From positions 1,218,905-1,250,904 of the forward strand of contig NZ_CP039887.1 in assembly GCF_005221305.1 (NCBI RefSeq): a stretch of 32,000 nucleotides of DNA, written 5' to 3'. Source of the DNA: Neisseria subflava (GTDB taxonomy: Bacteria; Pseudomonadota; Gammaproteobacteria; Burkholderiales; Neisseriaceae). The notes beneath the pieces are model-generated. The model saw nothing but the letters and a program-made list of their open reading frames with translations, did not search any database and was not told the DNA's origin. Positions 24,853-26,906 of the stretch are shown here, in pieces. Each line of letters starts with the position of its first letter. Positions within the stretch are counted from its first letter, which is position 1. A program made the position numbers and the translations under genes.

Positions 24853-26379
24853 ATCAGCCTCGACGACGAAATCATCACCGACATCGAGCGCGATAAGCTG
24901 CACCGCGAAATCTACCGCATACAGGGTAAACTCGCCAGCCGTTACGAACTCGATCCCCTAGGTCGTCTGAAAAAACAAATCGCCACCCTCAATGATTTGA
25001 CGGAAGGCGGTAAAGGCAAAACCAAAGTAGCGGCGGGCTATGGCCAAACCGCGGTCAAACGCAGCTACGGCTACAACCGCACCGGCAACCTGACCCACAG
25101 CACCGACCAGCGGACGGGCACGACCCGGTTCGAGTACGACAAACTGGGCAGGATTACCCAAGCGGGCAGCGAACGGTTCGCCTTCGACCCCGCGCACAAT
25201 ATTCTGTCTGACAACAATAGCCCTACCGTCCCCGACAACCGCCTGAAAACCTACAACGGCAACAGCTATTACTACGACGGCCTCGGCAACCTGATCCACC
25301 GCGAACTGGCCGACGGCGAAGTGCAGAACTATTTCTACGACCTGCATGACCAACTGGTGAAAGCCGAAATCTTCAAAAAAGACGGCAGTAAAGAAACTTG
25401 GGCGTACAGCTACGACGCCTTGGGCAGAAGGATAGGCAAAGGTCGTCTGAAAAACGAAGAAGTTTCAGAAACGTCATTCCCGCATGATTTAAGCGGGAAC
25501 GGCCTCGAAAACCAAACCCGCTTTGTTTGGGACGGCAGCCATTTGCTGCAAGAAGTCCATTCTGATGGCAGATATACCTATATCTACACCGATCCGAGCA
25601 GCTATGAACCGCTCGCACAAGTCCGCAATTGGACAACCGCAGAAGGCGAAAACCGCCAACAAACCCGCTACTTCCACTGCGACCAAATCGGCATCCCAAG
25701 AGAGATGACCGATAAGGACGGCAACCTCTTATGGCTCGGCAACTACACCGGCTGGGGTCGTCTGAAAGAGGAAACCAAGGTAACGGATAGCGCATACCAA
25801 CCCTTCCGCCTGCAGAACCAGTATGCCGACCGTGAGACGGGGCTGCATTACAACTTCTTCAGGTATTATGAGCCGGATGCGGGGCGGTTTGTGAATCAGG
25901 ATCCAATTGGGTTGGAAGGTGGAGAAAATTTATACAAGTTTGCTCCTAATGCGCAAAATTGGGTAGATATTTTTGGTTTATGGAGTTTTGGCGATCCCTT
26001 GCCACAATGGCTTGTTGATGGTGCTGCTGGGTTTGGAGACAACATTTCAATGGGAATTACTAAAAAAGCTCGACAATTATTTGGTATAAGCGGCGGAGTC
26101 ACAGAATCAACTGCTTATAAGACAGGCGATTGGCTAGGTGAAATACCTGGACTTATTAACCCCGCAAAAAAAGTTAACGCCGCATATAAAGGACTTAAAC
26201 GTGCAAAACTTTGGAAGTGTGAGATGAAAAAAATTTCTCGTACAGCAAAACGGACAAGAGCGAAGCGAGTTACAAAGGCTAAAGCTAATTTAAGAAGTGT
26301 GTTATGGCAGGAAACCAAAGGATTTATAACTGAAAAAATTAAAAGTAAAATTGTTGAGAATATAGTGAATCAAATTTAA
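24853..26379 (+). CDS. rhs: Orphan rhs 3' cassette 3: promoterless and start-less Rhs core end plus an unknown toxin tip
   Basis: The frame opens at 24853 directly after a TAA. Homology to rhs-1/2 starts abruptly at ISLDDE(I/V)ITDIERD. There is no ATG, and the track start at 24997 is a TTG. The core end is YNFFRYYEPDAGRFVNQDPIGLEGGENLYKFAPNAQNWVDIFGL. A 132-aa AT-rich tip occupies 25981-26379. Confidence 0.85.
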   Translation: MSLDDEIITDIERDKLHREIYRIQGKLASRYELDPLGRLKKQIATLNDLTEGGKGKTKVAAGYGQTAVKRSYGYNRTGNLTHSTDQRTGTTRFEYDKLGRITQAGSERFAFDPAHNILSDNNSPTVPDNRLKTYNGNSYYYDGLGNLIHRELADGEVQNYFYDLHDQLVKAEIFKKDGSKETWAYSYDALGRRIGKGRLKNEEVSETSFPHDLSGNGLENQTRFVWDGSHLLQEVHSDGRYTYIYTDPSSYEPLAQVRNWTTAEGENRQQTRYFHCDQIGIPREMTDKDGNLLWLGNYTGWGRLKEETKVTDSAYQPFRLQNQYADRETGLHYNFFRYYEPDAGRFVNQDPIGLEGGENLYKFAPNAQNWVDIFGLWSFGDPLPQWLVDGAAGFGDNISMGITKKARQLFGISGGVTESTAYKTGDWLGEIPGLINPAKKVNAAYKGLKRAKLWKCEMKKISRTAKRTRAKRVTKAKANLRSVLWQETKGFITEKIKSKIVENIVNQI

Positions 26380-26466
26380 ACCAGTACAGCGTTGCCTCGT
26401 CTTGCCGTAATATCTGTACTGTCTGCAGCTCGTCGCTTTGTCCTAATTTAAATTTAATTTACTATA
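26361..26466. mobile_element. Correia-like repeat-enclosed element (CREE/MITE), short about 106-bp form
   Basis: The sequence TATAGTGAATCAAATTTAAACCAGTACAGCGTTGCCTCG...CTGTACTGTCTGCAGCTCGTCGCTTTGTCCTAATTTAAATTTAATTTACTATA closely matches the Neisseria Correia consensus (TATAGTGGATTAAATTTAAACCAGTACGGCGTTGCCTCGCC...TTTAAATTTAATCCACTATA) as I remember it. Its left end supplies the last codons and the stop of the orphan-3 ORF. Confidence 0.85.
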
Positions 26467-26570
26467 TAGTCGATTAAAATTGCAATGATACGGCGTTGGC
26501 TCGCCTTGACATACTACCTGTACGCCTTGCGGCTCGCCGCCTTGTCTCATTTTTATTTTAACCGACTATA
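26465..26570. mobile_element. Second, divergent Correia-like MITE in tandem, sharing the junction TA
   Basis: The sequence is TATAGTCGATTAAAATTGCAATGATACGGCGTTGGCTCGCCTTGAC...GCGGCTCGCCGCCTTGTCTCATTTTTATTTTAACCGACTATA. Its terminal inverted repeats are TATAGTCGATTAAAAT and ATTTTAACCGACTATA. It has the same length and internal layout as a CREE. Confidence 0.75.
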
Positions 26571-26600
26571 GTTTGAATATGTAAAATAGGTAATTCTCAT

Positions 26601-26906
26601 ATGTATAATTTCTTTCTTAAAAATAAAGATTTGCTTTGTGTATTTTGTGTATTAATTTGGGATTTATATGATTTATATGATTGCTTATTCAATGGGAATT
26701 GTGGCTGGAAGAGAGATATGTATTTTCCTTCATTTGGATTAGGTAGAATAATGTATTCATTATTTAATTTAATTCTTATGGTGGCATTATGTACTTGGAT
26801 ATTTTTATTTTTTCAAAATACTATAAAAAATAGTAGCCATAGGTTGGGTAGGACCCTTAAAAAAAGAAAGCAAACCGTAGCACGCGTGATTAAAGCTAAA
26901 AAATAA
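26601..26906 (+). CDS. Putative immunity protein for the orphan-3 toxin (small membrane protein)
   Basis: The ORF is 101 aa and very AT-rich, with hydrophobic segments LLCVFCVLIW and IMYSLFNLILMVALCTWIFLFF and a basic tail. It would lie only about 30 nt from the toxin stop if the two MITEs were removed. The RBS is weak. Confidence 0.5.
   Translation: MYNFFLKNKDLLCVFCVLIWDLYDLYDCLFNGNCGWKRDMYFPSFGLGRIMYSLFNLILMVALCTWIFLFFQNTIKNSSHRLGRTLKKRKQTVARVIKAKK

Follow-up and report, generated by a model that had tools for sequence, protein, structure and literature searches.

In a 32,000-nucleotide stretch of the Neisseria subflava chromosome (NZ_CP039887.1, positions 1,218,905 to 1,250,904; hereafter the window), an orphan rhs cassette is located at 24851-27063. 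It consists of a rhs core fragment, a variable C-terminal tip and a small downstream open reading frame (ORF), separated from the tip by two miniature inverted-repeat transposable elements (MITEs) of the Correia type. With moderate confidence, we interpret it as a stored toxin/immunity pair which would be activated by recombination with a full-length rhs gene and whose toxin would act at or across the inner membrane. The cassette type itself is a standard orphan rhs-CT/immunity module. New are the unannotated toxin family to which the tip is assigned by profile searches, together with its shared N-terminal module, a specific family of immunity proteins with two transmembrane (TM) segments, and Correia insertions that rewrite the end of a toxin and uncouple a toxin/immunity pair. 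L and P numbers below denote retrieved contigs or loci and proteins, respectively.

Features of the cassette and the genes it refers to (positions in the window):
24851-25980, forward strand: rhs core fragment without a 5' end, about 376 codons (Pfam/NCBIfam, self-comparison of the window)
25981-26376, stop to 26379, forward strand: AT-rich tip, 132 codons after ..DIFGL (direct reading)
25981-26148, forward strand: N-terminal module of the tip, about 56 amino acids, WSFGDPLPQWLVDGAAGFGDNISMGITKKARQLFGISGGVTESTAYKTGDWLGEIP (profile search)
26149-26360, forward strand: family-specific polybasic tail (subfamily alignment, AlphaFold2 model)
26361-26466, forward strand: Correia-type MITE no. 1, 106 bp, with a 29-nt terminal inverted repeat (published Correia variants)
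26465-26570, forward strand: Correia-like MITE no. 2, 106 bp, diverged, about 75% identity to no. 1
26571-26600, forward strand: native 3' end of the tip, GTTTGAATATGTAA (..SLNM-stop), and original 16-nt spacer (comparison with L008 and P0007)
26601-26906, forward strand: candidate immunity gene, 101 amino acids (homologues follow the closest tip homologues)
27025-27063, forward strand: inverted-repeat hairpin of DNA uptake sequences with a T run, a terminator-like cassette end (16-nt perfect arms; 17 pairs, T-rich tail)
24773-24804, no strand: palindromic pair of DNA uptake sequences, AAGGTCGTCTGAA...TTCAGACGACCTT (sequences at 24774 and -24792)
15075-19220: full-length rhs gene Rhs1
19669-24006: full-length rhs gene Rhs2

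The rhs core fragment and its tip

According to Pfam and NCBIfam scans, the window contains a type VI secretion system (T6SS) locus of a commensal Neisseria with VgrG and DUF2169 domains and PAAR-like Rhs genes, and the cassette is part of a polymorphic-toxin array downstream of VgrG, DUF2169 and the two full-length PAAR-like Rhs genes. Neisseria T6SS-B loci are described as carrying rhs genes 3' of vgrG and a chaperone, with rhs-flanked clusters and polymorphic toxin loci (PMC10210955). The 1.13-kb core fragment lacks the N-terminal (PAAR/secretion) part and matches RHS_repeat, RHS and Rhs_assc_core, the core model ending at residue 328 in ..NWVDIFGL (nt 25980). Its sequence (24851-25978) is 83.8% identical to Rhs1 17740-18828, about 84% to Rhs2 and 82% to a neighbouring orphan cassette (orphan 4). 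The homology to all three extends from 24851 to 25978, where it ends precisely with the cleavage site, and a core without 5' end that is 82-84% identical to upstream rhs genes bears out the designation as an orphan cassette made earlier from the sequence alone. The end of the core reads DPIG-X18-DIFG-L (DPIGL 25900-25914, DIFGL 25966-25980). Measured against the aspartyl-protease/cleavage motif of Rhs proteins, DPXG-X18-DPXG (definition from PMC10684867), this is the predicted cleavage motif, in which both Asp residues are present and Ile stands in place of the second Pro.

Downstream of the motif, the codons 25981-26376 match the 132-residue peptide that the sequence-only reading had placed after ..NWVDIFGL. 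With a GC content of 0.37-0.41, the tip stands well below the core (about 0.55), and ORF 26601-26906 is lower still at about 0.31, in agreement with the AT-rich composition reported for the pair. The cassette combines a core without 5' end homologous to an upstream full-length gene, a cleavage motif with a variable C-terminus, a shift in base composition between core and tip, a small downstream gene predicted to be a co-varying immunity gene, and a direct orientation permitting recombinational tip swap. These features are shared with the orphan rhs-CT/rhsI modules of Salmonella, E. coli, Serratia and Neisseria T6SS-B (PMC10210955), from which the window cassette differs by its unannotated tip family, by the two Correia MITEs splitting the pair and by a second DPxG that reads DIFG.

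The reading frame of the tip is open from 24853, after a stop at about 24850, and ends with TAA 26377-26379. It contains no ATG, and its first start-type codon is TTG 24997, upstream of which direct reading found no Shine-Dalgarno or other purine-rich ribosome-binding site; initiation at this TTG, as considered in the sequence-only reading, is therefore unlikely. The uptake-sequence pair at 24773-24804 forms a terminator-like hairpin of 14 pairs between the Rhs2 immunity gene and the cassette. Because the fragment is devoid of a PAAR-like N-terminus and shell, of an ATG and of a ribosome-binding site, and because this hairpin lies just upstream, we infer that the toxin part is neither made nor secreted from its present position. 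Exact identity runs between the core fragment and the full-length genes reach 77 and 74 nt for Rhs1 and 59 and 48 nt for Rhs2, all in direct orientation. In selection experiments, Salmonella orphan rhs genes were reportedly activated by recombination with the upstream rhs gene. If the core fragment recombined homologously with Rhs1 or Rhs2, the tip and its putative immunity gene would analogously be placed on a full-length, T6SS-loadable Rhs protein, and cleavage between ..DIFGL and the following W would then free the tip as a two-part protein.

As a separate observation, DNA uptake sequences (GTCGTCTGAA / GCCGTCTGAA) occur inside rhs core coding DNA at 24960, 25440, 17851, 18607, 22445, 25757, 28411 and other positions, often on the G-R-L-K codons of YD repeats, so that the recombination substrate itself would be a preferred substrate for transformation.

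The tip has no assignable motif, as had been stated before: searches in Pfam, NCBIfam and PDB sequences and with Foldseek all remained blank. In detail, at E ≤ 0.1-1 neither the tip nor the module of 28 relatives matched any Pfam or NCBIfam model, PT-TG, PT-VENN and Ntox/Tox included. A PDB sequence search with the family profile returned nothing, alignments obtained with core plus tip end at the cleavage site, and the best Foldseek hit of the tip model against the PDB (E 3.3) is no match. A word-indexed search with the tip found only two relatives; 708 representative proteins (E ≤ 1e-3) were obtained when profiles were searched exhaustively. A metagenome scan added 5 loci, which were informative on nothing past the module. 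On these similarities, the tip is assigned to a widespread putative toxin family that has no name in the databases.

The part of the tip that is kept across this family is the N-terminal module, with the consensus W.GDPLPQ.LVDG.AGFGD..S.G.T...R...G....V..S..Y..G. In 220 retrieved family proteins, the C-terminal tails that accompany it form at least 44 unrelated clusters (groups unconnected by BLASTP), and in 169 of these proteins it directly follows a cleavage-like motif. Full-length Rhs proteins that carry it are known from Microbulbifer, Pseudomonas and Kangiellaceae; in Rhs proteins of 1485-1784 amino acids it comes after the cleavage motif, and another carrier comprises 3851 amino acids. 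The type of downstream immunity candidate varies with the tail, being membrane-bound in some cases and soluble-looking in others (L003, L016, L017). The carriers include P0008, P0027, P0030, P0035 and P0043 as well as the loci L011-L017. ParB-like, ADP-ribosyltransferase-like and HNH-like identities that some other tails suggested by eye found no Pfam support and were dropped.

The tail of the window tip falls into a cluster of 20 members, which is characterised by a short segment at the C-terminus and by the motif AK.W[KR].(N)S.T.R.T; in the subfamily alignment W78 is invariant and S86, T88 and T92 are near-invariant. The closest homologues reach 60-66% identity, with P0007, P0154 and P0155 at 60-63% over the aligned tip (P0007 61%), P0001 is a truncated tip, and more distant homologues are P0077 (33-34%), P0111 (27-33%) and P0156. 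Absence of the tip from full-length polymorphic toxins, which the sequence-only reading would have counted against a toxin, was not observed: the same tail cluster occurs on P0079 (1543 amino acids, Rhs) and P0070 (2246 amino acids, Rhs-repeat protein), in the latter with the module well downstream of the core. In the restored form described below, the tip contains 26 Lys+Arg and 10 Asp+Glu residues (net charge +16). Residues 61-131 have a charge of +18; the first 60 residues are rich in glycine and close to neutral. From an alignment of 76 sequences, AlphaFold2 returned an all-helical model (predicted local distance difference test, pLDDT, 73; predicted template modelling score, pTM, 0.37) in which only the long helix is confident, a single helix of 71 residues (61-131, pLDDT about 90); with 3 sequences the pLDDT of the tip was 56. 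The subfamily-specific part would accordingly be a polybasic helix of about 70 residues.

Many family tips, across tail classes, end with a C-x-C within their last 2-6 residues (..CGC, ..CECN, ..CTCQK, ..CSCESQE), examples being P0002, P0009, P0011, P0014, P0018, P0037, P0079, P0146 and the tips of L012-L015. The window tip and its closest relatives do not have this terminal C-x-C.

The candidate immunity gene and the Correia insertions

The 101-residue ORF 26601-26906 was found as announced by the sequence-only reading, 221 nt downstream of the tip. Its protein is hydrophobic in two segments, at residues of about 11-29 and 45-72, and further contains a loop of the conserved sequence D-C-x-F-x-G-N-C-G-W-K/R (CX6C) and a basic C-terminal tail with a charge of +11. 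Pfam and NCBIfam scans gave no match, and homologues were found at 99%, 98% and 84% identity. In every homologue contig whose downstream region was examined, a small ORF begins about 12-20 nt past the tip and encodes a protein with two hydrophobic segments whose C-terminal tail is rich in Lys/Arg; the closer ones also have the D-C-x-F-x-G-N-C-G-W-K/R sequence in the loop. Three of these ORFs are similar in sequence:
L019 1375-1680: immunity homologue, 45% identity, E 1.6e-21
L020 825-1151: immunity homologue, 34% identity, E 5.6e-24
L022 507-761: weaker immunity homologue, 26% identity, E 2.6e-4

The small ORFs of L018 and L021 have the architecture of two TM segments plus basic tail at marginal sequence similarity. 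This comparative evidence is strong for ORF 26601-26906 as the cognate immunity gene of the tip and, as its homologues follow the closest tip homologues at about 20 nt, the proposal of a toxin/immunity module holds; on this comparison the pair is a real module. The positive-inside rule for membrane protein topology would place the N-terminus and the basic tail in the cytoplasm and the CX6C loop in the periplasm, in which its two Cys residues could form a disulfide.

In the two cassettes most closely related to that of the window, L019 (1730-2131 and 2143-2463) and L020 (1169-1456), further small multi-TM ORFs of 133, 106 and 95 amino acids follow the immunity gene, of which L019 2143-2463 and L020 1169-1456 seem conserved on visual inspection. 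In the window, a terminator directly follows the immunity gene and these ORFs have no counterpart.

Two 106-bp MITEs between the genes had been recognised correctly in the sequence-only reading; the assumption that both lie outside the tip did not hold, as MITE no. 1 starts inside the tip ORF and supplies its last codons and stop. The two elements have the same orientation and one common TA at 26465-26466, and the ends of no. 1 correspond to variants of the Correia repeat that have been published (tatagtggattaaatttaaaccggtacgg / ..aatcaggacaa). Inserted at a TA, MITE no. 1 begins 19 nt before the tip stop, so that the last five tip codons (..N-IVNQI) and the stop 26377-26379 come from the element. 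When both MITEs are removed and one TA is kept, the tip ends ..KIVENSLNM-stop (131 amino acids), 16 nt before the ATG of the 101-residue ORF. Two independent observations confirm this restored junction: contig L008 represents the empty site with a single TA, at which a decayed tip 3' end (..KIKSKIV-stop-NSLNI-stop) abuts the ORF homologue, and P0007 ends ..EIVETSLDL-stop at the position of the restored tip end. L008 likewise substantiates the earlier claim that the MITEs displaced the immunity gene. The putative immunity gene originally stood 16 nt downstream of the tip, before two Correia MITEs inserted at one TA, four codons before the stop. They exchanged SLNM-stop for IVNQI-stop and moved the candidate immunity gene to a distance of 221 nt.

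Other samples (L009, L010, P0006) contain the arrangement with the MITEs at about 99% identity, and in L004 and L005 just a short Correia-like end is present at the site of the tip/immunity junction. Both insertions have the hallmarks of Correia repeat enclosed elements (CREEs), namely a length within about 104-157 bp, Correia inverted repeats and a TA target duplication, no. 2 being divergent. They resemble the CREEs of Neisseria in their size of about 106 bp, their Correia terminal inverted repeats, their TA insertion and their occurrence in or next to T6SS genes, and differ in that no. 2 is diverged (about 75% identity to no. 1) and in forming a tandem pair with one common TA. CREEs are known to disrupt T6SS genes in Neisseria (PMC10210955), and CREE-borne promoters have been documented in this genus (PMC10210955, PMC5039591).

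The immunity ORF is almost invariant, with 1-3 nt differences in 306 even where the flanks differ. L004-L007 contain a copy with 3 nt differences in 306 (L004 569-874); the toxin is absent, and the copy is preceded by an unrelated ORF rich in AT and by a short Correia-like end. L008 2222-2584 carries an 84% identical copy that is shortened to 77 amino acids and adjoins an exonuclease III gene. In place of the window dialect, contigs L004-L008 contain the uptake sequences AGGCAGCCTGAA or AGGCTACCTGAA, dialects that are presumably of the Kingella and Eikenella types. This distribution suggests a spread of the orphan immunity gene among oral Neisseriaceae. Since near-identical copies occur without the toxin in contigs with other uptake dialects, the gene would be useful alone. 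It is probably transcribed separately, possibly from a MITE-borne promoter. A promoter-like match (9/12, TTAACC-18-TAAAAT) is located at 26558-26587; a MITE-borne promoter as such was given up as a candidate, the scan not rising above shuffled sequence.

Site of action and competing explanations

The most likely site of action of the toxin would be the cytoplasmic membrane, at or across which it may cause depolarisation, permeabilisation or potential-driven entry instead of working as a soluble enzyme. This proposal is based on the invariable small two-TM partner, the lack of an enzymatic signature and the precedent of Tse5-CT/Tsi5 of Pseudomonas aeruginosa, a pore-forming Rhs toxin whose immunity protein Tsi5 has two predicted transmembrane regions (PMC9637101, PMC10684867). 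Like the tip, Tse5-CT is a C-terminal Rhs fragment of about 130-150 amino acids, helical, without a predicted enzymatic domain and Lys/Arg-rich in its C-terminal half, and in both cases the immunity protein is a small two-TM protein (predicted for the window). The polybasic-helix toxin would be neutralised by this two-TM inner-membrane protein with its CX6C loop toward the periplasm, and the shared N-terminal module would most likely provide delivery or membrane engagement for many tails.

Several results weigh against this proposal or other parts of the interpretation of the cassette. Tse5-CT begins with strongly hydrophobic, glycine-rich helices, whereas no segment of the tip is hydrophobic (the highest Kyte-Doolittle mean over 19 residues is 0.44) and its amphipathicity is only moderate (hydrophobic moment at most 0.59, reached where the sequence is strongly polar). 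By these values, membership of the Tse5-CT family through bilayer-spanning helices was rejected, and homology to Tse5-CT (residues 1169-1317) was rejected as well (hhalign probability 0.4%, BLASTP E 1.5). The lack of hydrophobic helices and of homology to Tse5-CT weakens the case for action at the membrane; the polybasic helix is too polar for a classical amphipathic membrane peptide, hydropathy and amphipathicity do not support a classical transmembrane pore like Tse5-CT, and the helix could equally bind nucleic acid. In the AlphaFold2 model, the module consists of three short low-confidence helices (pLDDT 50-65). The closest tip homologues (P0007, P0154, P0155, P0001) are short orphan-type fragments, and fusion to full-length proteins of the P0079 and P0070 type is seen only at 31-38% identity to the window tip. 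Promoter-like matches upstream of the immunity gene are at chance level (5 found, 3.7 +/- 1.9 expected from shuffled sequence).

A second point of reference is given by the CdiA-CT toxins of contact-dependent inhibition (CDI) systems, which possess modular N-terminal entry domains and include ionophores with membrane-bound CdiI proteins (PMC11630599). The tip shares with them the two-domain toxin region, one domain of which is reused with many partners, and, with the membrane-acting members, a small membrane-bound immunity protein. Delivery differs, being CdiB/CdiA-dependent there and by T6SS/Rhs here. In the CDI ionophores, the C-terminal five-helix bundle is conserved and the entry domain varies, whereas members of the window family have the N-terminal module in common and differ in their tails; the AlphaFold2 model of the tip (three short helices and the 71-residue helix) does not predict such a bundle, which sets the two apart at the level of the model.

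The same comparison also supports the strongest of the alternatives, in which the target is cytoplasmic: the module would be a CdiA-CT-like entry domain, the polybasic helix would hit nucleic acid or ribosomes, and the immunity protein would block entry or sequester the toxin. The presence of one module on 44 unrelated tails is reminiscent of the modular CDI entry domains (PMC11630599), the +18 charge over 71 residues without any hydrophobic stretch fits this target, and the soluble-looking immunity candidates of other subfamilies (L003, L016, L017) fit cytoplasmic toxins carrying the same module. However, immunity to cytoplasmic toxins is usually conferred by a soluble binder, and every examined member of the subfamily has a small two-TM protein; nor did Pfam/NCBIfam or Foldseek searches find a nucleic-acid-binding or enzymatic domain. 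We regard a cytoplasmic target as a minority possibility. A wider generalisation, of low probability, is offered as a conjecture. In it, the module would be an undescribed domain, common in Rhs and other polymorphic toxins, that serves delivery or entry at the membrane and takes at least 44 unrelated toxic tails across the inner membrane, and the window tail would represent a new class of small polycationic helical toxins of non-enzymatic action, countered by two-TM immunity proteins with a periplasmic CX6C loop.

A further explanation regards the cassette as a decaying relic, in which the toxin fragment is never used, the MITEs mark its loss and ORF 26601-26906 is silent. It agrees with the missing start codon and ribosome-binding site, the upstream terminator, the two MITEs inside the module and the truncation of both the neighbouring orphan 4 and the P0001 tip, as well as with the decay in L008, where stop codons have arisen in the tip remnant and the immunity gene is cut to 77 amino acids. 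Yet both ORFs of the cassette are intact, the frame was preserved through the MITE insertion, with a change in the last four residues only, and the arrangement is found at 99% identity in the independent samples L009, L010 and P0006. Likewise, the 1-3 nt differences in 306 of the immunity ORF despite differing flanks and the preserved long exact identity runs with Rhs1 and Rhs2 argue against decay, which makes a relic rather improbable. Finally, it is very unlikely that the N-terminal module (D13, AGFGD, R31, S43, Y46) is itself toxic or catalytic, with tails that modulate targeting or stability, for although conservation within the family is highest in this module, which has invariant polar residues and is followed by a small-xxx-small, glycine-zipper-like stretch in 159 of the 220 proteins, the immunity candidates differ wholly between tail classes (membrane-bound or soluble), which is unexpected for one toxic unit, its low-confidence model has no known fold or family match, and only 6 of the 220 tips have a segment hydrophobic enough for a transmembrane helix.

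The surrounding array and biological significance

Downstream of the cassette, orphan cassette 4 (27143-28837) comprises 564 codons and then ends abruptly within the core (..FFRYCSIGCQSIT-stop). Its break is adjoined by a 41-residue ORF on the reverse strand (28789-28914) that resembles the N-terminus of an IS transposase by eye, and beyond orphan 4 a 95-residue RHS-repeat fragment is located at 29291-29578. On the upstream side, a 138-residue ORF 3' of Rhs1 (19111-19527) overlaps the last 110 nt of Rhs1, so that the true start of this putative immunity gene is probably an internal codon. An Rfam search detected no RNA family within 24000-27500.

Little is known about the route that takes Rhs-delivered toxins from the cocoon to the place where they act within the target cell (PMC10684867). 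A short, conserved module located right behind the cleavage site and recurring with dozens of unrelated tails would give a handle on the delivery of Rhs toxins. For commensal Neisseria, the T6SS arsenal gains an uncharacterised candidate toxin/immunity pair, and a Correia element is seen reshaping the 3' end of a putative toxin gene and uncoupling it from its immunity gene. The occurrence of the immunity gene alone in genomes with uptake sequences that are presumably of the Kingella and Eikenella types suggests that the toxin is in use in the oral community.

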